DNA of 64,000 nucleotides from an uncultured Rhizobacter sp. (GCA_964242145.1 CAXTCD010000002.1:3770-67769), one strand, 5' to 3'; positions 29,445-41,055 are shown, numbered from the stretch's first letter. The notes: generated by a model not told the origin, from the letters alone. Translations and numbers: made by a program.

Positions 29445-32495
<3,051 letters not shown>

Positions 32496-32539: not shown

Positions 32540-33142
32540 TCAGCCCCAGCGCGCTGCAGCGGGAAGCGTGGTTTGCAAGGCGTAACCCGATTCCGCCATC
32601 TGCGCGATCACTGTGTCAACGGCCTGCAGTGGCGTCAGCCGCGTGGTGTCGAGCCGCAACGCCGGTTGCTGCGGTGGCTCGTAGCGGGAGTCGATGCCGG
32701 TGAAGCCAACGATCTCCTTGCGCCGCGCTCGCTGATAAAGACCTTTCGGGTCGCGCTGCTCGCAGACGGTCAGCGGCGCATCGACGAACACCTCCATGAA
32801 GTCGTCCGGCGCGAAGCGCGCTTTCGCCGCGTCGCGTTCGGAGGCGAACGGCGAGATCAGCGCAACGATCACGATCAGGCCGGCATCGGTCATCAGCCGG
32901 GCGATCTCGGTCACGCGGCGCACGTTCTCGATGCGGTCGGCATCGGTGAAGCCAAGGCCGCGGTTGATGCCTTGGCGAAGCTCGTCGCCATCGAGCACGA
33001 AGGTGCGCAAGCCTTTGTCATGCAGGCGTTGCTCCAGCAAGACCGCGATCGTCGACTTGCCGGCGCCGGACAAGCCGGTCAGGTAAATCACACCGCCCTT
33101 GTGCCCATTCAGGGCCTCGCGCTGTTGCCTGATGATTCGCAT
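32540..33142 (-). CDS. cysC: Adenylyl-sulfate (APS) kinase
   Basis: YLTGLSGAGKST P-loop, LDGDELR, LGFTDADRIENVRRV, ALISPF, RDPKGLY and FTGIDSRYEPP; start at 33142. Confidence 0.95.
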   Translation of the reverse strand: MRIIRQQREALNGHKGGVIYLTGLSGAGKSTIAVLLEQRLHDKGLRTFVLDGDELRQGINRGLGFTDADRIENVRRVTEIARLMTDAGLIVIVALISPFASERDAAKARFAPDDFMEVFVDAPLTVCEQRDPKGLYQRARRKEIVGFTGIDSRYEPPQQPALRLDTTRLTPLQAVDTVIAQMAESGYALQTTLPAAARWG

Positions 33143-33380
33143 GTGAGTCGCTCCGATGACAAACGAAAACCCTGTAGGCAGCGCGGGCCCGCTCACGAGA
33201 CACTGCGCCCCATGCAAGATAACAGGATAGTGACACGGCAGATGAGACGCGCAAGCAAACTCCACCCGGCCCGTCGGGGCTCAGTAGGCAAGCCCCCGAA
33301 GCCGCTGTCAAATGCAGAAAGCATCGAAGCGTCTGCATGGCGCACGTCTGCAGCATGCGCGTATCCGTCGTGTGCCGCCA

Positions 33381-33416
33381 TTGACAGCGGGCCGGCCTGC
33401 CGAGAACGATAAGGCA
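33381..33416 (+). promoter_or_regulatory. Putative sigma70 promoter giving a leaderless sulfotransferase mRNA
   Basis: TTGACA at 33381, 18-bp spacer, AACGAT at 33405; the predicted +1 falls on the ATG at 33416. Confidence 0.4.
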
Positions 33417-34318
33417 TGCTGGAAGATGCCCGTGCGCCATATGCCATCCTGGCTCATCACCGGTCGGGGTCTAACTTCCTGAACGACCTGCTTCAGGCGC
33501 ACCCGCAGCTGGAATGCATCAACGAGCCGATGTCGATGCACACCCCCCACTTCCGCGATTGCGACCTGGTGCCGTGGCGGCGCGAAGACTTCGACCGGCG
33601 TTGGCTGCATGCCTCGCTCGTGCCGCATGACGGCCTGCGCGATTTCCTGTTCGACTTCAAAGACTATCTGCTGCAGTCGCACCGCGGCCGCATCGTCGGC
33701 TTCAAGGAGACGGTGCTGTTCGGCAAGCTGGAATGGTTGCGCGAATTTTTGCCACCGCTGAAGGTCATCTTCCTGAAGCGCGACATCCGCGCGGTGGTGT
33801 CGTCGATCTTGCGCAGCCACCTGACCGAGCTGTGGAACTACTCGAAGCTGGTGCCTGCGGCCTATCAACGCCTCTTTCCGGCGCATCACGCGCAGCGTCA
33901 AGTCGACCTCGAAACCGGCCTCGCGCTCCCATGGCATACACGAAACCCGAGCGGCGACGACAAGGTGCGTGCTGCCGCACTGGCGGCGATGAGTGTGGTG
34001 GTGCGTTATGAGCTTGCGCGGCGCGAGCTTCGGCATTTCGAGCACCGCATCTTGAGCCTCGAAGACATCGTGCAAAAGCCCGAGGTGTGCCTGAAGGTGA
34101 TCACCGATTTCCTGAACGTCGACAGCGACGACGCGCCGCTGCGCTTTCTGCATGGCCGGCATGTCACCAGCCGCGGCGGGCTCTTCTCCTCGTTCCGCTC
34201 CCCCGAAGACACGCAGCACGCCTGGTCGTGGCATTTGAGCGCCGCGCAATTGCGCGCGATCGACGCGGTAACCGCTGCGGTGACCCATGCCACCCAGGCC
34301 CGGCCCCCTGATGGATGA
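33416..34318 (+). CDS. PAPS-dependent sulfotransferase
   Basis: 5'-PSB-like HHRSGSNFL, LECINEP, VGFKET and 3'-PB-like FLKRDIRAVVSS (R-x7-S). Confidence 0.82.
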   Translation: MLEDARAPYAILAHHRSGSNFLNDLLQAHPQLECINEPMSMHTPHFRDCDLVPWRREDFDRRWLHASLVPHDGLRDFLFDFKDYLLQSHRGRIVGFKETVLFGKLEWLREFLPPLKVIFLKRDIRAVVSSILRSHLTELWNYSKLVPAAYQRLFPAHHAQRQVDLETGLALPWHTRNPSGDDKVRAAALAAMSVVVRYELARRELRHFEHRILSLEDIVQKPEVCLKVITDFLNVDSDDAPLRFLHGRHVTSRGGLFSSFRSPEDTQHAWSWHLSAAQLRAIDAVTAAVTHATQARPPDG

Positions 34319-34988
34319 CGCGTTGATTCGGCATTACATCGAAAATGCCGTGGCCTTTGTGCCAGCCGCCCGTGGCGCCCGCCCGCTGCGCATAGCGACC
34401 ACGCTCGTCACCTGCGAGCTGGCCGTGGCCTTGTTGAATGCCATGCGCCATCCAGCGGAGCCGGCCGCAAGCTATGCGCACATCAACACGCACAATCCGC
34501 AAAGCCCGCTTCGCTATGAACCGAAATCCCAACGCTGGACTTGCGAGGCTGACCGGGCGCAGCACCCGGTGTCCGGCATCAACTGGGCCGGCGCGGCGCG
34601 CATCGCGGCGCAGCTGGGTGCGCGCCTGCCGTTTGCGCGCGAATGGGAATGCTTTGCCTCGAACAATGCGCCCGAGAAGACCTACCCTTGGGGTGACGCG
34701 GAGCCCACGTTGCAGCTCGCCAACTTCGGCGAGCATTTCAGTGGCACCACCCCCGTCGGCCAGTTCCCTGCGTCGGACATGGGCCTGTACGACCTGGCCG
34801 GCAACTTGAGCGAATGGTGCCAGGACCACCCCCAGGCCGATGGCAAGCCGATGCTGCTGGAGCGGGTGGTCAAGGGCGGCGCCTGGAGCAAGGACGCGGC
34901 CTGGCTGCGCATCGGCGCCAACCGCGGCAAATGGGAACGCCTGGGCACGACCACCATCGGGCTGCGCCCGGTCTGGGAAGCACGTTGA
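34311..34988 (+). CDS. FGE/SUMF1-fold protein lacking the catalytic Cys pair
   Basis: HPVSGINWAGA, RLPFAREWE, YPWG, PVGQFP, GLYDLAGNLSEW and RVVKGGAW..TIGLR; start overlaps the sulfotransferase stop. Confidence 0.85.
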   Translation: MDDALIRHYIENAVAFVPAARGARPLRIATTLVTCELAVALLNAMRHPAEPAASYAHINTHNPQSPLRYEPKSQRWTCEADRAQHPVSGINWAGAARIAAQLGARLPFAREWECFASNNAPEKTYPWGDAEPTLQLANFGEHFSGTTPVGQFPASDMGLYDLAGNLSEWCQDHPQADGKPMLLERVVKGGAWSKDAAWLRIGANRGKWERLGTTTIGLRPVWEAR

Positions 34989-35043
34989 CTGCCGCCGTTG
35001 GACGTTCAAGCTCGAACCCTCTGATGTGCCCTGGAGCCCACCG

Positions 35044-35742
35044 ATGAAGCTTGCGATCTTCGATCTCGACGACACGCTGATCAACTTTGCCGCCACGCGC
35101 CAGGCCGCTTATCGCGGCATGGCCGATCTGCTGACGCGCGGCGGTGTGGACGCCCCGGCCTTTCTCGCGGCCTGCCCTGCGGTTGACCGCGCGCTCTTCG
35201 TGCTGTTCGAGACCGGGCAGATCAGCCGCGCCGACTACCGCCTGCGCCGCTTCAGCGAGCCGTTCGATGTGATTGGTGCGCCGCATCAACCGGCGTTGGT
35301 ACAGCGGCTCAACACTTTCTTCATGGACTGTGTCAATGACACGCCCTTGCTGTTCGATGATGCAAAACCGGTGTTACAGGCCTTGCGCGTGGCAGGCATT
35401 CGCACTGCGATCCTGACCAACGGCCCGTCCGATGGCCAGCGCCGCAAGCTGAAGGCCACCGGCCTGACGGATGCCGTCGATGAAGTGGTGATCGGCGAAG
35501 AGATCGGCTTTCGCAAACCCTCGCCGCAAGCTTTTCATTGGGTCATTGACCGCTTCTCGCTGGGCCGCTGTGACGCGTTGATGATCGGCGACTCGCCGGA
35601 ACTCGACCATGACGCCGCCCTCAGCGCGGGCCTTGGCGCGCGCCTGCTGGACCGCGAAGGCCACCACGCTGGCGGGGCACGCGAAGTGATCCAGTCGCTC
35701 GACGACGTGAGGGTCCAAGGGCTTATCCCCAAAATAACCTGA
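35044..35742 (+). CDS. HAD-superfamily phosphatase (YjjG/nucleotidase-like)
   Basis: IFDLDDTL (motif I), LTNG (II), RKP (III) and IGDSPELD (IV). Confidence 0.88.
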   Translation: MKLAIFDLDDTLINFAATRQAAYRGMADLLTRGGVDAPAFLAACPAVDRALFVLFETGQISRADYRLRRFSEPFDVIGAPHQPALVQRLNTFFMDCVNDTPLLFDDAKPVLQALRVAGIRTAILTNGPSDGQRRKLKATGLTDAVDEVVIGEEIGFRKPSPQAFHWVIDRFSLGRCDALMIGDSPELDHDAALSAGLGARLLDREGHHAGGAREVIQSLDDVRVQGLIPKIT

Positions 35743-36099
35743 TGACAACGCGGCGTAACAAGCGCAGCATGTCAAACCTTACAGGTTGCCAAGCCCTTGC
35801 GGGCCTCGTACCCTTTGTTTTACGGCAGAGGGGTTCACGATGGCGGACTGCGGCGGCTGATCTACCCAGCTCCAAGCGTCTCACGCTCGCATGTGCTCGT
35901 CTGGACCCAGCCGCACTTGAAAGCAGAACGCCAGGGTTGTGACGAGAAGGCGGCCGCGGGCAAGCGTCGGCGCGAGGGGCACGCGATGTGGATTCAATCG
36001 ATCAAGTGCGGGTGGCGCGCTGCGTCGCAGCGCTTTGTCGTTTCGCCTTCGCCCGCGTCACCGCCCGGTGCCGGGCCTGCGCTGGATCTCGAAGCCAGC

Positions 36100-37176
36100 A
36101 TGGCTTTATTGCCACCCGCCCCACCGCTTGAAGCCAACCCGGCGACTCGGGCTAACGCTCGACCCGGCGCCTGGCGGGCCGCGCTGCTGACCGGCAGCAG
36201 CCTGCTGGTGCTGGGTGTGCTGGCCATCGTCTACCTCTCGATCCACCGCGAGTCGGCTGCCACGCTTATCACCGACAAGCTGAGCATCGCGCTTTCCAGC
36301 ACGCCGCACGCCGCGCTGCTGCACATCGCCGCCGCCAAGGGCTATTTCACCGACGAGGGCCTGGATGTCTCGGTGATGCCGGTCACCCACGGCAAGGCCG
36401 CGCTCGATCTGCTGGCCCAGGGCAAGAGCGATCTGGCCTCCGCGGCCGAAGTGCCTTTCGTGATTGCGGTAATGAAGGGCGCGGACCTCGGCATCGCCGC
36501 GACCATGGCGAGCATCTCCACCGAGATGGCAGTGGTCGTGCGGCGTGACCGCAGCATCGGCCACCCGCGCGATCTGGCGCAAAAGCGCATCGGCGTGACC
36601 TTCGGTACCAGCGGCGAATACTTTCTGTGGGCCTTTCTGATCCGCAACAAGCTGACACCGGGTTCGATCACGCTGGTTGACCTGCCGCCCGACCAACTGG
36701 TGCTGGCGCTGACCGAAGGCCGCATCGATGCGGCTGCGATGTGGCAGCCCCTGGTGTCACAGGCGGAATCGACGCTCGGCAACCTCGGACAGGTATTCAC
36801 CGAACCGAGCGCCTACACGGTGATGCATGTGCTGGTGGGCCGCAACGAGTTCTTGCGCACCCATCGCATCGCAGTACAGAAGCTGCTGCGCGCGATGCTG
36901 AAGGCCGAAGAATTCAACCGCAATGATCCGCATCGCGCGATGGAGCTGACGGCGCAGCGGCTGAAGATCCCTGTGCAGAGCCTGCAGGCCGGCTGGGGCG
37001 AACTCGATCTCGCCGTCGACATGCAGCAGTCGCAGCTGATCACGCTGGAAGACGAGGCGCGTTGGGCGATCGCACGCGGCCATGCGCCGCCCGGGCCGCT
37101 GCCCAACTTCCTGCCCCACTTGTCGCTCGACGCACTGCTGGCGGTGCTGCCCGAGCGCGTGAGCGTGGTTCGCTAA
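36100..37176 (+). CDS. NrtA/SsuA/NMT1-type substrate-binding protein with N-terminal membrane anchor
   Basis: TM segment, then AKGYFTDEGLDV, GKAALD, DLAQKRIGVTFGTSGEYFL and IDAAAMWQP; start 36100 or 35986. Confidence 0.85.
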   Translation: MALLPPAPPLEANPATRANARPGAWRAALLTGSSLLVLGVLAIVYLSIHRESAATLITDKLSIALSSTPHAALLHIAAAKGYFTDEGLDVSVMPVTHGKAALDLLAQGKSDLASAAEVPFVIAVMKGADLGIAATMASISTEMAVVVRRDRSIGHPRDLAQKRIGVTFGTSGEYFLWAFLIRNKLTPGSITLVDLPPDQLVLALTEGRIDAAAMWQPLVSQAESTLGNLGQVFTEPSAYTVMHVLVGRNEFLRTHRIAVQKLLRAMLKAEEFNRNDPHRAMELTAQRLKIPVQSLQAGWGELDLAVDMQQSQLITLEDEARWAIARGHAPPGPLPNFLPHLSLDALLAVLPERVSVVR

Positions 37177-37203: not shown

Positions 37204-38658
37204 ATGAAGATCGGAACAAAAGGACGCATCTCGGCCGTGCTGACCCTGGGCACGATCGCTTTCATCGCAGCGATGATCTGGTGGGCCAACACCGAAGTGG
37301 AAGACGCCGGGCGGCAACGCAAGCAGGCCAACGAAATCTCGCGCGGGCTCGATGAACTGCGGCTGGTGTCTTTTGAATACCTGCTCGGCCGCCAGGAGCG
37401 CGCCCGGATGCAGGCGCAAAGCGTCTCGACGCGGCTTGACCGGCTGATGGAGACCCCCATCTTCACCGGTGTGCGGCAACGCGAACTGATGAACTCGCTG
37501 CGCTCGCGCAGTGTGATCGCCCAGGGCATCTTCTCCGAACTGCTGTCCGACCCGCAGGCCAACTCCGGCCAGCGCAGCGATGACGAAACCCTGCGCCGCT
37601 TCGAAGCCCAGCTGTCGAGCCGGTTGCTGATCCTGCAGCAGGACAGCCTGGCCGACGCGTTCTCGTTGACCGATGTGTCGACCGATCGCATCCGCGAAGC
37701 GCAGCGACGCGTGGTCGTGGTCACCTTGGCGGGCCTGGCCTTGATTGCATTGATCGTGATCGGCGCGGGCCTCTTCATACATCGCGATGTGCTGGTGCCG
37801 ATTGCCCGGCTGGAGCAGGCCACCAACGAAGTGGCCGCGGGCAACTGGAGCTTCACGCTGAATGTTGCCAGCGACGACGAGATCGGCGAGATGTCGCGCA
37901 ATTTCGATGCGATGACACGGTCGCTGCGCGATTCTTTCGCGCAGATCGAGCGCAGCAACCAGGAGCTCGCCGCATTGAACCAGGAGATCGAATCTTTCAG
38001 CTATTCGGTGTCGCATGACCTGCGCGGCCCCTTGCGCAGCATGGATGGCTTCTCGCTCGCCCTGCTCGAAGACTACGGCGACAAGCTCGATGCCGAGGCG
38101 AAAGACTCGTTGTCGCGCATCCGCGCCGCCAGCCAGCGCATGGGCAGGCTGATCGACGAATTGCTCGGCCTGTCGCGCGTGACCCGTGCCGAGCTGACCC
38201 TGCGGCCGGTCAGCCTGAGTGCCGTGGCCACCGAAATCATCGAAGCTCTGGCCCAACAGCACCCGCACCGTTCAGTGCAATGGCAGATCGACGAGGGTCT
38301 GACGATCCAGGCCGACAAGCCGCTCATCCAGATCGCCATGCAGAACCTGCTGGAGAACGCCTGGAAGTTCACTGGCAAGACCGATGCACCGCTCATCCGT
38401 GTCGGCATGCTCGATCGCAACGGCCAGAAGGATTACTTTGTGGCTGACAACGGCGTCGGCTTCGACATGGCCTACGCCGATCGCTTGTTCGGCGCCTTCC
38501 AGCGCCTGCATCACGAGACCGACTTCCCCGGCACCGGCATCGGCCTGGCCATCGTGCAGCGCATCTTCCGGCGGCACGAGGGCTCGATCAGGGTCGAAGC
38601 ACAGCCGGGACTGGGCGCAACGTTTTATTTCAGGCTGAAAGAACCATCCCATGAATGA
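37204..38658 (+). CDS. Membrane sensor histidine kinase (2 TM, HAMP, HisKA, HATPase)
   Basis: FSYSVSHDLRGPL H-box, NLLENAWKFT N-box, DNGVGF, FGAFQRLH and GTGIGLAIV. Confidence 0.95.
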   Translation: MKIGTKGRISAVLTLGTIAFIAAMIWWANTEVEDAGRQRKQANEISRGLDELRLVSFEYLLGRQERARMQAQSVSTRLDRLMETPIFTGVRQRELMNSLRSRSVIAQGIFSELLSDPQANSGQRSDDETLRRFEAQLSSRLLILQQDSLADAFSLTDVSTDRIREAQRRVVVVTLAGLALIALIVIGAGLFIHRDVLVPIARLEQATNEVAAGNWSFTLNVASDDEIGEMSRNFDAMTRSLRDSFAQIERSNQELAALNQEIESFSYSVSHDLRGPLRSMDGFSLALLEDYGDKLDAEAKDSLSRIRAASQRMGRLIDELLGLSRVTRAELTLRPVSLSAVATEIIEALAQQHPHRSVQWQIDEGLTIQADKPLIQIAMQNLLENAWKFTGKTDAPLIRVGMLDRNGQKDYFVADNGVGFDMAYADRLFGAFQRLHHETDFPGTGIGLAIVQRIFRRHEGSIRVEAQPGLGATFYFRLKEPSHE

Positions 38659-39106
38659 TTCGAACAAGGTGATCCTGCTGGTCGAAGACAACCCGGACGA
38701 CGTCGCCCTCACACTGCGCGCCTTCAAGCGCAGCCACGTTAGCAATCCCATCACCGTGGCCCGTGACGGCATCGAAGCCCTCGACTTTCTGTTCGGCCGC
38801 GGCGTCCATGCCGACCGCGCCCATGCCTCGTTGCCGACGATCGTGATCCTCGACCTGAAGCTGCCCAAGCTCGATGGCCTGGGGGTGCTGAAGGCCTTGC
38901 GCGCCGATGAGCGCACCAAGCTGCTGCCGGTCGTGATCCTGACCTCGTCGAAGGAAGAACAAGACCTGATCTCCGGCTATACGCTCGGCGCGAACAGCTA
39001 TGTGCGCAAGCCGGTCGACTTCGCCGAGTTTGTCGAAGCGGTCAAGGTACTCGGCATCTATTGGCTGATGATGAACGAGTCTCCACCCGAACGAGCCACC
39101 TCGTGA
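38651..39106 (+). CDS. Single-domain response regulator (Rcp1-like)
   Basis: LLVEDNPDD, ILDLKLPKLDG, ILTSS and GANSYVRKPVDF. Confidence 0.94.
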   Translation: MNDSNKVILLVEDNPDDVALTLRAFKRSHVSNPITVARDGIEALDFLFGRGVHADRAHASLPTIVILDLKLPKLDGLGVLKALRADERTKLLPVVILTSSKEEQDLISGYTLGANSYVRKPVDFAEFVEAVKVLGIYWLMMNESPPERATS

Positions 39107-41055
39107 GTCGCTCTGTCAAAGTGCTGGTCGTCGAAGATTCCGACGACGACGCCAAACTGGCCATGCGCATGTTGAAGCGCGGTGGCTTCGACCCGACCTA
39201 TCAGCGCGTGCAAGACGTCGACGGCCTGATCGACGCGTTGAAGCACGACACCTGGGACGCGGTGCTGTCGGACTTCCGCATGCCCGGCTTCAACGGCGTT
39301 GATGCGCTGAAGATCTTCCGCGATACCGGGCTCGACATTCCTTTCATCTTCTTCTCCGGCACCATCGGCGAAGAGACCGCAGTCGAGGCGATGAAGGCGG
39401 GTGCGAGCGACTATGTGATGAAGCAGCACCTGGCGCGGCTGGCGCCGGTGCTGGAGCGCGAACTCGGCCAGGCATTGATTCGGGCCGAGCACCGGCAGGC
39501 GCAGATCGACCTCGAAGTCTCGCGCGACCGCTACCTCGACCTCTATGACTTCGCACCTGTCGGCTACCTGACGCTGACCGAGGAAGGCCTGATCTCGCAA
39601 CTCAACCTCACCGGTGCGGCCATGCTCGGCGAGGAGCGGCCTGCGTTGATGAACATGCCGTTCGCGCGCTTCGTGCCGCCCGAAGAGGCCGACCACTGGC
39701 GGCAGCACTTCCTGGTCGCGCTGTACCACGGCAATAACCTTCGTCTTGAGCTGACACTGAAGGGCGCACAGGGCCAGCGCTGCCCGGTGCAGCTGGATTG
39801 CACGCGAGTCACTTCTGAGAGCGCCGCCCCCATGGTGCGCGTGACACTGACCGACATCAGCGCACGCAAGGAGGCCGAGGCCAACCTGCGCGGCTTCGAG
39901 GCGCAGTTGCGCGAGGTGCAGAAGATGGAGTCGATCGGCACGCTGGCCGGCGGCATCGCGCACGACTTCAACAACATCCTCGGCGCGATCCTCGGCAACC
40001 TGTCGCTTGCACGCAATGAAGTCGGCACCGGCCACGCCGCGCTCGTCAACCTGGACGAAATCCAAAAAGCAAGCCTGCGCGCACGCAACCTCGTGCAGCA
40101 GATCCTCGCGTTCAGCCGCCGCGCACCGCAGCAGCTCGTGACACAGTCGTTGGGCCCGTTGCTGATGGAGACACGCCAGTTGCTGCGCGCCACGCTACCA
40201 GCCCGCGTCGGCTTCGAGGTCAACGATTCCGATGAACCGCTGTACGTGCATGCCGATGGCACCCAGGTCCAGCAGGTGCTGATGAATCTGTGCACCAACG
40301 CCTGGCATGCCCTGGCCGATGGCGTCGGGCACATCACGGTGGGCATCGATCACGTCCACATCGACGTCGGCAACGCCAAACGGCTGGGCGGCTTGCCACC
40401 CGGTCCGTATGCGCACCTGTGGGTGTCCGACGACGGCATTGGCATGGACACCGCGACACGCGAGCACATCTTCGAACCCTTCTTCACGACCAAGCCGGTC
40501 GGGCAAGGCACGGGCCTCGGGCTGTCGGTGGTGCACGGCATCATGACGGCGCACCATGGCGCGATCGATGTCGACAGTGAGCCCGGGAAAGGCAGCACCT
40601 TCCACCTGTACTTCCCGGTCGTTCCCCCTCCATCCGCCGGCGCTGCCGCGGCCAAGCCCGCCGCGCACGAAGCCGCTCGCGGCCAGGGCCAGCATGTGCT
40701 GTACATCGATGACGACGAGACGATGGTGGTGATGGTCGAGCGCATCCTGCAGCGCTCAGGCTACGAGGTCAGCGGCTATCAAGACGCACAGGCCGCGATG
40801 GCCGCGGTGCGTGAGCGCCCTACGGCCTTCGACCTGGTCGTCACCGACTTCAACATGCCCGAGCTGTCGGGCCTGGACGTGGCTCGCGAGCTGGCGCGCA
40901 TCCGCCCTCAGTTGCCCGTCGTCATCAGCTCCGGCTACATCACCGAAGAACTGCGCATCGAAGCGCGGCTGGCCGGTGTGCGCAGCCTGCTGGAGAAGCA
41001 GAACACCTTCGAAGAGCTGAGCCAATTGGTCGGGCGTACCTTGCTGCGCAGATAA
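39103..41055 (+). CDS. Hybrid REC-PAS-HisKA-HATPase-REC kinase
   Basis: N-terminal REC (VVEDSDDD, SDFRMP), PAS (YDFAPVGYLTL), GGIAHDFNNIL H-box, FFTTKPVGQGTGLGL and C-terminal REC (TDFNMP); GTG start overlaps the RR stop. Confidence 0.93.
   Translation: MSRSVKVLVVEDSDDDAKLAMRMLKRGGFDPTYQRVQDVDGLIDALKHDTWDAVLSDFRMPGFNGVDALKIFRDTGLDIPFIFFSGTIGEETAVEAMKAGASDYVMKQHLARLAPVLERELGQALIRAEHRQAQIDLEVSRDRYLDLYDFAPVGYLTLTEEGLISQLNLTGAAMLGEERPALMNMPFARFVPPEEADHWRQHFLVALYHGNNLRLELTLKGAQGQRCPVQLDCTRVTSESAAPMVRVTLTDISARKEAEANLRGFEAQLREVQKMESIGTLAGGIAHDFNNILGAILGNLSLARNEVGTGHAALVNLDEIQKASLRARNLVQQILAFSRRAPQQLVTQSLGPLLMETRQLLRATLPARVGFEVNDSDEPLYVHADGTQVQQVLMNLCTNAWHALADGVGHITVGIDHVHIDVGNAKRLGGLPPGPYAHLWVSDDGIGMDTATREHIFEPFFTTKPVGQGTGLGLSVVHGIMTAHHGAIDVDSEPGKGSTFHLYFPVVPPPSAGAAAAKPAAHEAARGQGQHVLYIDDDETMVVMVERILQRSGYEVSGYQDAQAAMAAVRERPTAFDLVVTDFNMPELSGLDVARELARIRPQLPVVISSGYITEELRIEARLAGVRSLLEKQNTFEELSQLVGRTLLRR

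Follow-up and report, generated by a model that had tools for sequence, protein, structure and literature searches.

The question raised by this locus is what a stand-alone gene for adenosine-5'-phosphosulfate (APS) kinase, cysC, is doing head-to-head with three co-oriented genes encoding a sulfotransferase (ST), a protein with the fold of the formylglycine-generating enzyme (FGE) and a HAD phosphatase. These genes lie in a stretch of 64,000 nt from an uncultured Rhizobacter sp. (GCA_964242145.1 CAXTCD010000002.1:3770-67769), and this whole stretch is what we call the window. To our knowledge, bacterial sulfation dependent on 3'-phosphoadenosine-5'-phosphosulfate (PAPS) is known from few systems, those of Nod factors, of the sulfolipids of mycobacteria, of RaxX and of some antibiotics. 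An earlier reading, made from the DNA alone (the sequence-only reading), had taken the four genes for a self-contained and undescribed module dedicated to PAPS-dependent sulfation. Gene calls from an ORF listing and profile searches (Pfam, TIGRFAM/NCBIfam) found all four in place, with cysC head-to-head with ST-FGE-HAD. The module also proved to be undescribed: no characterised cluster was matched in NCBIfam, PADLOC or the literature, and no description of the ST+FGE+HAD+cysC combination was found in full-text literature. Its limits, however, had to be redrawn, as the invariant core is the ST-FGE pair, joined by HAD in most cases, and in this lineage it belongs to a block of eight genes.

The evidence for this core is its recurrence. 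The order ST-FGE(-HAD) was found in 28/28 loci reached through ST and in 9/9 contexts reached through the FGE-like protein, ST being immediately upstream of the FGE-fold gene in every context examined; recurrence of this kind is far beyond chance, and the check on co-occurrence that had been proposed was thus strongly positive. On the FGE-like side, a profile was run against 1.84 billion representative proteins and a word-indexed search was then made; these brought out a wider subfamily, marked by the signature VKGGxW.K, and the nine members that were looked up all had ST immediately upstream, usually overlapping. In the window (34305-34320, ccccctgATGGATGAc) the FGE-fold gene begins with the ATG at 34311, a start backed by the N-termini of homologues, and the ST stop codon TGA is at 34316-34318, therefore the two genes share the 8 bp ATGGATGA; the overlap that had been reported is real, and through it the FGE-fold gene is predicted to be translationally coupled to ST. 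In one metagenomic protein call of 236 aa (P0196) an FGE-like body follows the ~45 N-terminal residues of an ST (LSHHRSGS...NEPLSMHT); the probable cause is a frameshift or gene-calling artefact across the overlap, a true fusion being less probable.

As far as can be read from its sequence, ST passes every test for an active PAPS-dependent sulfotransferase of the clade of tyrosylprotein sulfotransferases (TPST) and CurM. The 5'-phosphosulfate-binding loop (5'-PSB, RSGS) and the 3'-phosphate-binding motif (3'-PB, R-x7-S), previously described as intact, are present and conserved across 48 homologues: the loop H14-H15-R16-S17-G18-S19 is invariant or nearly so, with R16, S17 and G18 invariant in these sequences from three phyla, and both residues of R122...S130 are invariant, as are E37 and K97 across the family. 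The family profile matched TPST1 and TPST2 in the PDB (E 3e-5). The HMM alignment to TPST1 places R16, E37 and K97 opposite the catalytic residues of TPST, an Arg, a Glu and a Lys, with N36-E37 facing the EE of CGEE and K97 the K of NKDP; we take the TPST2 equivalents of E37 and K97 to be E99 and K158. The AlphaFold model of ST (pLDDT 90.5) is closest to TPST1/2 and to the CurM ST (E 4e-9 to 1e-7, TM ~0.55), with the CurM and OLS ST domains next after the TPSTs, and out of 55 PDB matches at E<=1e-3 all 50 listed are sulfotransferases or a close relative (retinol dehydratase). For PAPS as the donor the support is indirect and comes from linkage to cysC, sat or cysNC genes; the acceptor cannot be read from sequence or fold.

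The ST family is small, forming at 90% identity ~250 clusters within a set of 5.8 billion proteins, and NCBIfam has no model for it; a second homologue search with a mixed-phylum ST profile returned the same Burkholderiales top 120 and added the family-size estimate only. In the genome to which the window belongs (completeness 91.6%) the window ST is the sole complete Sulfotransfer_3 gene, one further fragment lying at a contig end, and no Sulfotransfer_1 gene was found. The ST tree places all Sphaerotilaceae in one well-supported clade with Streptomyces as moderately supported sister (88/89), and the window sequence is within that clade on a fairly long branch. The window ST also carries a 16-aa insert, HHAQRQVDLETGLALPW (window 33884-33931, residues ~157-172), which none of its homologues has and which is modelled with low confidence (pLDDT ~58).

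The partner of ST has the FGE fold. Its model (pLDDT 76, pTM 0.79) matched FGE structures in Foldseek at E 2.5e-10, and its fold matches include FGE, pFGE, CalU17, CarF, PorK, ToxD, EgtB and PvdO, whereas by profile the best match is PorK/GldK. At the presumed site of the FGE Cys pair the window reads KGGAWSKDAAWLR, as had been noticed, and no Cys column is invariant or nearly so among 25 members of the FGE-like family or among 14 wider relatives. The protein consists of the FGE domain only, without the N-terminal DinB domain and iron-binding His triad of the EgtB/OvoA type (TIGR03440, 23.9 bits against a cut-off of 360), and no sulfatase gene occurs in the conserved block or in the contexts examined. 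Because there is no conserved Cys, no DinB domain and no sulfatase nearby, the protein is neither an FGE nor a sulfoxide synthase, and both identities were rejected. The role of oxidase, which was among those suggested for it, is also unlikely, since a conserved candidate metal-binding Cys and a DinB domain are both absent; binding or scaffolding, also suggested, are plausible. Conserved basic residues (K188, K194, R205, R219) are located towards the C-terminus, in the part that holds the active site of FGE. Lys194 may take the place of Cys336 of human FGE, a lead only; the printed alignments did not span a true FGE in the Lys194 stretch.

The third gene is predicted to encode a HAD-IA phosphatase, with catalytic motifs I-IV present and conserved and DxDxT, K and GDxxxD intact. 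It had been called YjjG-like, and YjjG (TIGR02254) is indeed its best family, but the score of 109.9 bits is below the equivalog cut-off of 159.9, so that assignment as a YjjG nucleotidase stays under the threshold; the nearest PDB entries are 3qnm, N-acylneuraminate-9-phosphatase and YfnB. Compared with the window HAD, those of the other contexts separate into two groups or more, at 17-27% and at 35-63% identity. Recruitment from more than one lineage suggests that the phosphatase is functionally required and is not a mere hitch-hiker.

Turning to the supply of activated sulfate, CysC scores above the cut-offs of TIGR00455 (228.9 against 138.7) and PRK03846 (238.5 against 163) and carries the Walker A motif GLSGAGKST. 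Its ORF spans 32540-33265 on the minus strand, with homology beginning at M42, the likely start, which gives 32540-33142. It is the sole clear APS kinase of the genome, the only other match having 26.7 bits. The absence of cysD, cysN and cysH from its vicinity, already remarked upon, agrees with the finding that cysH, cysD and cysN sit together on contig C15. The CysH of this genome has the APS-reductase motifs CC...CxxC...ECGLH, and its CysN (426 aa) is without a CysC (APS-kinase) domain; therefore sulfate assimilation would bypass PAPS and, since the genome assimilates sulfate via APS reductase, the window cysC would serve sulfation only and can be regarded as dedicated to it. No protein of the genome reached the CysQ equivalog cut-off, a result compatible with, and not proof of, a need for a cassette-borne phosphatase acting on 3'-phosphoadenosine-5'-phosphate (PAP).

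We then asked what accompanies the core in the family. Searches covered 40 related genomes, and 22 Sphaerotilaceae loci were obtained from a GTDB genome scan, in genera including Rhizobacter, Ideonella, Piscinibacter, Methylibium and Caldimonas. In 22/22 of these loci ST-FGE-HAD (47-65% identity) adjoins, in divergent orientation, an operon encoding a substrate-binding protein (SBP), a histidine kinase (HK), a response regulator (RR) and a hybrid HK. Orthologues of the HK (57-69% identical) are next to the SBP gene in 21/22 relatives, the contig ending at SBP in the 22nd, and those of the RR and of the hybrid kinase are 76-85% and 62-71% identical. The cysC gene follows the sensor operon in 9/22 loci. 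Its membership of the cassette, as claimed by the sequence-only reading, is thus true of the window and, judging from the fetched flanks, of 10/23 blocks with the window included, but elsewhere sat/cysC or cysD/cysNC are found instead. The window has the same eight genes in another order, with cysC divergent from ST-FGE-HAD and SBP-HK-RR-hybrid HK following after a gap of ~350 bp. The linkage has outlasted this rearrangement, which argues for selection acting on the whole eight-gene set. All-against-all comparison of ORFs of >=40 codons placed the exact limits of conservation at HAD and, at the opposite end, at the hybrid kinase or cysC, and in the 23 Sphaerotilaceae blocks it revealed no further conserved small ORF, exporter, glycosyltransferase or sulfatase.

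The SBP is nearest to the taurine/sulfonate binders TauA/SsuA, its best PDB match being taurine-binding TauA (E 2e-12), and its phyletic distribution follows that of ST. Within the genus sample, ST was found in 6/24 other genomes, i.e. 7/25 with that of the window, and SBP orthologues (52-58% identity, E below 1e-97) are present in exactly these 7, the remaining 18 having only SBP paralogues with 35% identity or less. A stand-alone cysC is also present in all 7, whereas the ST-negative genomes have no cysC or, mostly, one within a frame of CysN-CysC size (470-720 aa). It should be noted that kin are not independent and these counts are descriptive. In a family sample of 401 genomes from 201 genera, ST occurs in 8 genomes of 6 genera, the window's own included, hence the cassette is a rare accessory trait in the family.

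Two further observations concern this sensor region. A crude alignment upstream of ST gave nothing general as a conserved operator. A palindrome CTGT-N8-ACAG (e.g. CTGTAAGGGCTTACAG) is located 117-197 bp upstream of the ST start in loci L016, L021, L024, L028, L031 and L042 (L numbers designate sampled loci); the SBP-ST divergent regions of these 6/22 Sphaerotilaceae loci hold 6/10 of its occurrences in 385 kb, it is not found in the window, and it may be an operator. In the genome of the window, contig C120 (9456-13846) has a paralogous sensor locus, in which genes for a histidine kinase and for a large HAMP protein flank two tandem genes for SsuA-like binding proteins, therefore the architecture of an SBP beside a sensor kinase recurs in this genome.

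Outside the Burkholderiales the survey of contexts comprised about a dozen loci, those derived from metagenomes possibly being chimeric. Four Streptomyces species have ST-FGE-HAD with a PycC-like class III cyclase and a DHA2 exporter of the major facilitator superfamily (MFS), and metagenome-assembled genomes of Clostridia have ST-FGE-CysD-CysNC-AAA_28-(78 aa)-HAD. In the Bacillus cereus group, the version on a 276-kb plasmid is enclosed by genes for resolvase and Tn3 transposase and reads sat-cysC-ST-FGE-HAD-methyltransferase-like, to which a P-loop protein may be added; the RefSeq names of these genes are generic only. A Theionarchaea genome and a related metagenome contig have P-loop protein-ST-FGE-HAD-ABC exporter, with sat and cysC near in the metagenome contig; Pseudovibrio and one other contig have ST-FGE-P-loop protein-HAD by insertion sequence (IS) elements or conjugation genes, and Actinomadura has ST-FGE alone. 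Overall, the genes of the ST-FGE pair overlap, or come close to it, in nearly all cases, HAD is present in most contexts, PAPS genes are beside ST-FGE in B. cereus (sat, cysC), L055, L058, L059 and L041, and exporters are adjacent in Streptomyces (MFS, 4/4 species) and in L052, L055 and L057 (ABC). The statement that the cassette has no exporter accordingly holds for Sphaerotilaceae but not for the Streptomyces, archaeal and other versions. Mobile settings comprise the Tn3/resolvase context of the Bacillus plasmid, flanking IS110 and IS66 elements and, in Pseudovibrio, a conjugative element. The ST-FGE cassette is horizontally spread and is present in bacteria and one archaeon.

Several companions of the pair deserve mention in their own right. 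The P-loop proteins of ~350 aa (Walker A GxxGAGKTS and an NDK motif) form a family with no Pfam model and a faint likeness to HprK-related kinase B and FomB; its profile gave nothing significant against the PDB. Seven contexts outside the Burkholderiales have a member of this family together with ST-FGE(-HAD); the genome of the window has none. A methyltransferase-like protein of 266-277 aa comes after HAD in the Bacillus cereus-group locus L051 (9568-10368) and in the metagenomic L057 (9448-10281), the two copies being 51% identical, with a weak Methyltransf_23 match. Just outside the resolvase-bounded Bacillus cassette, L051 1-1762 holds a PycTM gene and two short cyclase-like genes, Pycsar-like, to which the PycC-like cyclase inside the Streptomyces operons is unrelated. 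Locus L059 (3143-9764) reads cysD-cysNC-dTMP kinase (above the TIGR00041 cut-off)-UDG-like-ST-FGE-pyruvate-kinase-like, with HAD missing, a hint that ST-FGE is used there in connection with nucleotides or DNA.

From the gene content, motifs, folds, conservation and phyletic coupling described above, we infer a complex of ST and the FGE-fold protein, a role for HAD, the kind of acceptor and a link between making and sensing. CysC would convert APS from the housekeeping CysDN into PAPS; ST would be the catalytic subunit of a two-subunit sulfotransferase and the FGE-fold protein its obligate partner, most likely holding the acceptor or the sulfated product, by analogy with other Cys-less FGE-fold proteins, which bind without being catalysts. 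HAD would strip the 3'-phosphate from PAP, the inhibitory by-product, or unmask the acceptor hydroxyl from a phosphorylated precursor. The product would most likely be a small organosulfate that leaves the cell, because MFS or ABC exporters accompany the Streptomyces, archaeal and other versions. In Sphaerotilaceae this product, or a related sulfated compound, would probably be read in the periplasm by the TauA/SsuA-like SBP and passed to the HK-RR-hybrid HK phosphorelay. We give this reading as a whole a probability of roughly 45%.

Several points weigh against it. Gene coupling alone points to the ST-FGE complex; the FGE-fold model is of moderate confidence only, with pLDDT under 50 in the loop at residues ~189-199. 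Peptides (TPST) or intermediates bound to acyl carrier protein (CurM), not free small molecules, are the substrates of the nearest structural relatives of ST, and we know of no HAD-family PAP phosphatase. The conserved Sphaerotilaceae block is also without an acceptor, a precursor gene, an exporter or an enzyme of acceptor biosynthesis, and the phosphorelay has no DNA-binding output, so that its sensing of the product and any control of the cassette are putative. A bolder version, in which the ST-FGE pair is a new two-subunit sulfotransferase, spread horizontally in bacteria and archaea, that makes a diffusible sulfated signal whose receptor in Sphaerotilaceae is the SBP with its phosphorelay, seems rather unlikely to us; if true, it would be a previously unknown organosulfate-based system of cell-to-cell or autocrine signalling.

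The relationship of ST to the TPSTs raises the possibility of peptide or protein sulfation of the RiPP type (peptides made by the ribosome and modified after translation), in which ST would sulfate Tyr, Ser or Thr, the FGE-fold protein would recognise the peptide, and HAD and the P-loop kinase-like proteins would deal with a phosphate that competes for that residue or occupies it transiently. Tyrosylprotein sulfotransferases are the best matches of ST in both sequence and fold, although this likeness is remote (TM ~0.55, 14-18% identity), and the FGE fold is able to bind peptides, true FGE gripping CxPxR. The HprK-kinase-B/FomB-like P-loop protein of ~350 aa, often in cassettes outside Burkholderiales, fits as well: precursors of lasso peptides are phosphorylated by HPr-kinase homologues, and sulfotransferase genes occur in Firmicutes lasso clusters (PMC8498205). 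Genes for ABC2-type exporters, PmbA/TldD and PqqD lie near some versions, but those for PqqD and TldD are several kb away and not conserved. Moreover, the search for a precursor peptide found none in the window intergenic regions, in the 23 Sphaerotilaceae blocks or in the gaps beside the cassette in 11 other loci, no conserved small ORF being present in or beside the cassette in any lineage examined, and the Sphaerotilaceae block is without a protease, an exporter or a RiPP recognition element. We regard peptide sulfation as an improbable explanation.

Less probable again is detoxification or resistance, according to which the SBP and kinase would detect a hydroxylated substance from outside, whether xenobiotic, antibiotic or plant compound, which the cassette would then sulfate and the FGE-fold protein sequester. 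Location on mobile DNA (Bacillus plasmid with Tn3/resolvase, IS110/IS66, Pseudovibrio conjugative element) and the patchy, rare distribution (8/401 family genomes including that of the window) would suit such a function, and so would the kinase-like, nucleotidyltransferase and methyltransferase neighbours, which resemble sets of antibiotic-modifying enzymes. Among the fold matches there is also CarF, a Cys-less FGE-fold protein of intrinsic carbapenem resistance. Another Cys-less FGE-fold protein is Tsi3, an immunity protein of the type VI secretion system (bioRxiv 10.1101/2021.05.21.445229), which can be counted on the same side. However, the phosphatase would have no obvious role here, and exporters and dedicated PAPS synthesis fit production at least equally well. 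We know of no bacterial resistance by PAPS sulfation. The link to phenolics of the adjacent pob/lig pathway, which the sequence-only reading had considered, does not survive either: PobA is near the cassette in 1/22 relatives and PrpF, LysR and AraC in 0/22, so that adjacency to pobA is not conserved.

Least likely of all is nucleoside or nucleotide sulfation, HAD making a nucleoside from a nucleoside monophosphate and ST sulfating it into a nucleotide mimic that is a toxin, signal or anti-phage agent: the pyrimidine nucleotidase YjjG is the best family of HAD, the Streptomyces operons have their PycC-like nucleotide cyclase (PADLOC E 2e-16), the Clostridia version its AAA_28 P-loop protein, L059 its dTMP kinase (above the family cut-off) and UDG-like gene and the Bacillus cassette a Pycsar-like locus beside it (L051), and for ascamycin and nucleocidin it has been proposed that adenosine undergoes PAPS-dependent 5'-O-sulfation (PMC4257720, PMC9113183), but HAD is under every nucleotidase cut-off, ST, the FGE-fold protein and HAD have no PADLOC match, the nucleotide-linked neighbours vary by lineage with none in the window, and the ascamycin/nucleocidin sets (sulfatase, amidinotransferase, radical SAM) are absent from the cassette. 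In PADLOC-DB 2.0 no matches were found for ST, the FGE-fold protein, HAD or SBP, CysC giving weak P-loop noise only, and a known anti-phage defence system was rejected on the absence of matches for the core proteins. A sulfamate cluster of the ascamycin/nucleocidin kind was likewise rejected, its defining genes being absent.

Comparison with known systems helps to place the organosulfate reading that we prefer. NodH with NodPQ, and Stf0 with CysNC in mycobacterial sulfolipid synthesis, combine a dedicated supply of activated sulfate with a specialised sulfotransferase while assimilation does not need PAPS, and the cassette is alike in this. NodH and Stf0 belong to ST families different from that of the window, fold matches to Stf0 and Stf9 being weak, and their acceptors are known glycolipids whose biosynthetic genes are absent from the cassette. 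TPST1/2 (PDB 3AP1, 5WRJ, 8W5Z) and RaxST share with ST PAPS-dependence and the Sulfotransfer_3 fold; in TPST1/2, with which the comparison was made, both PAPS-binding loops (5'-PSB and 3'-PB) and the three catalytic residues Arg, Glu and Lys match those of ST in the alignment, at an identity of 14-18%. In Xanthomonas raxX-raxSTAB, as here, the sulfotransferase is accompanied by dedicated genes for PAPS and by a two-component system (PMC6637879). Unlike Rax, the cassette has no precursor peptide and no exporter of the RaxA/RaxB type, and it has an FGE-fold partner and a HAD. The CurM and OLS ST domains (PDB 4GBM, 4GOX), second-best fold matches from the same clade, are parts of polyketide synthase (PKS) modules that activate a beta-hydroxyl for decarboxylative elimination, whereas the window ST is stand-alone, with no PKS nearby.

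In FGE and its non-catalytic kin (pFGE/SUMF2, PorK/GldK, PvdO, CarF, CalU17, Tsi3) the FGE-sulfatase fold and the motifs HPV.G..W, YPWG and D.AGN..EW are shared with the window protein, which differs from FGE in having neither the Cu-binding Cys pair nor a sulfatase partner, and from PorK, PvdO and CarF in having no signal peptide or lipobox (N-terminus read by eye). What sets this family apart is its strict pairing with a sulfotransferase. The ascamycin (acm) and nucleocidin (nuc) clusters also perform PAPS-dependent sulfation and encode an APS kinase or sulfurylase of their own as well as an exporter (PMC4257720, PMC10946740). They use sulfatase, amidinotransferase, radical-SAM and other proteins, none of them in the cassette, and no FGE-fold/HAD pairing is described there.

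The features of the locus, together with the P-loop proteins of other loci, are collected in the table. GC content is even throughout the cassette region. The intergenic region between cysC and ST (33143..33415) has no sigma-70 consensus match and no conserved small ORF, and the consensus scan that gave the terminator-like stem-loop at 36017..36033 returned 2 sites against 3.1 expected, so it is not significant alone. On the other side of cysC, at 30320-32495, pobA (4-hydroxybenzoate 3-monooxygenase, TIGR02360 673.9 bits) is divergent from an AraC-family regulator, HpaA-like but below cut-off, the two being probably a PobR-type pair, ordinary and without linkage to the cassette in relatives.

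Table. Positions of features in the window and, in the last two lines, in other sampled loci.
Feature	Position	Strand	Basis
cysC, stand-alone APS kinase, 200 aa from M42	32540..33142	-	PF01583 203.9 bits, TIGR00455 228.9 bits
cysC/ST divergent intergenic region, 273 bp, promoters presumed	33143..33415	.	direct sequence reading
ST, predicted PAPS-dependent sulfotransferase, TPST/CurM-like Sulfotransfer_3 type, 300 aa	33416..34318	+	PF13469 E 3.7e-12
Cys-less FGE-fold protein, 225 aa	34311..34988	+	PF03781 E 1.4e-26
HAD-IA phosphatase, YjjG/NANP-like, 232 aa	35044..35742	+	PF00702 E 3e-22
Terminator-like stem-loop in the ~350-bp HAD-SBP gap	36017..36033	+	consensus scan
SBP, membrane-anchored TauA/SsuA-like (NMT1 family) substrate-binding protein	36100..37176	+	PF09084 E 2e-26, TIGR01728 E 2e-30 (below cut-off)
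HK, sensor histidine kinase, TM-HAMP-HisKA-HATPase	37204..38658	+	Pfam
RR, single-domain response regulator, REC only	38651..39106	+	PF00072 E 2.6e-17
Hybrid kinase, REC-PAS-HisKA-HATPase-REC	39061..41055	+	Pfam
~350-aa P-loop proteins	L051 10492-11571; L052 6059-7114; L053 8690-9682; L055 6118-7179		
~350-aa P-loop proteins, continued	L056 8699-9748; L057 10278-11330; L058 6058-7107		

The component families of the cassette are all known; what is new is the obligate pairing of ST with an FGE-fold protein and, in Sphaerotilaceae, the hard-wired sensor. The cassette is a compact mobile sulfation unit in which ST is always accompanied by a non-catalytic FGE-fold protein, a pairing that we did not find described, and it points to an unknown sulfated metabolite or modification. 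It also offers a testable role for one branch of the many proteins annotated as 'SUMF1/EgtB/PvdO family' that are without catalytic residues. A direct test is possible, since the cassette is present in several culturable isolates (Rhizobacter sp. Root1221, Root1238, OV335 and SG703, Caldimonas mangrovi S2-27, Methylibium rhizosphaerae C1-9 and Ideonella sp. YS5). For the root- and soil-associated Sphaerotilaceae, the finding means that sulfation is genetically tied to an orphan phosphorelay whose sensor is like sulfonate-binding proteins.

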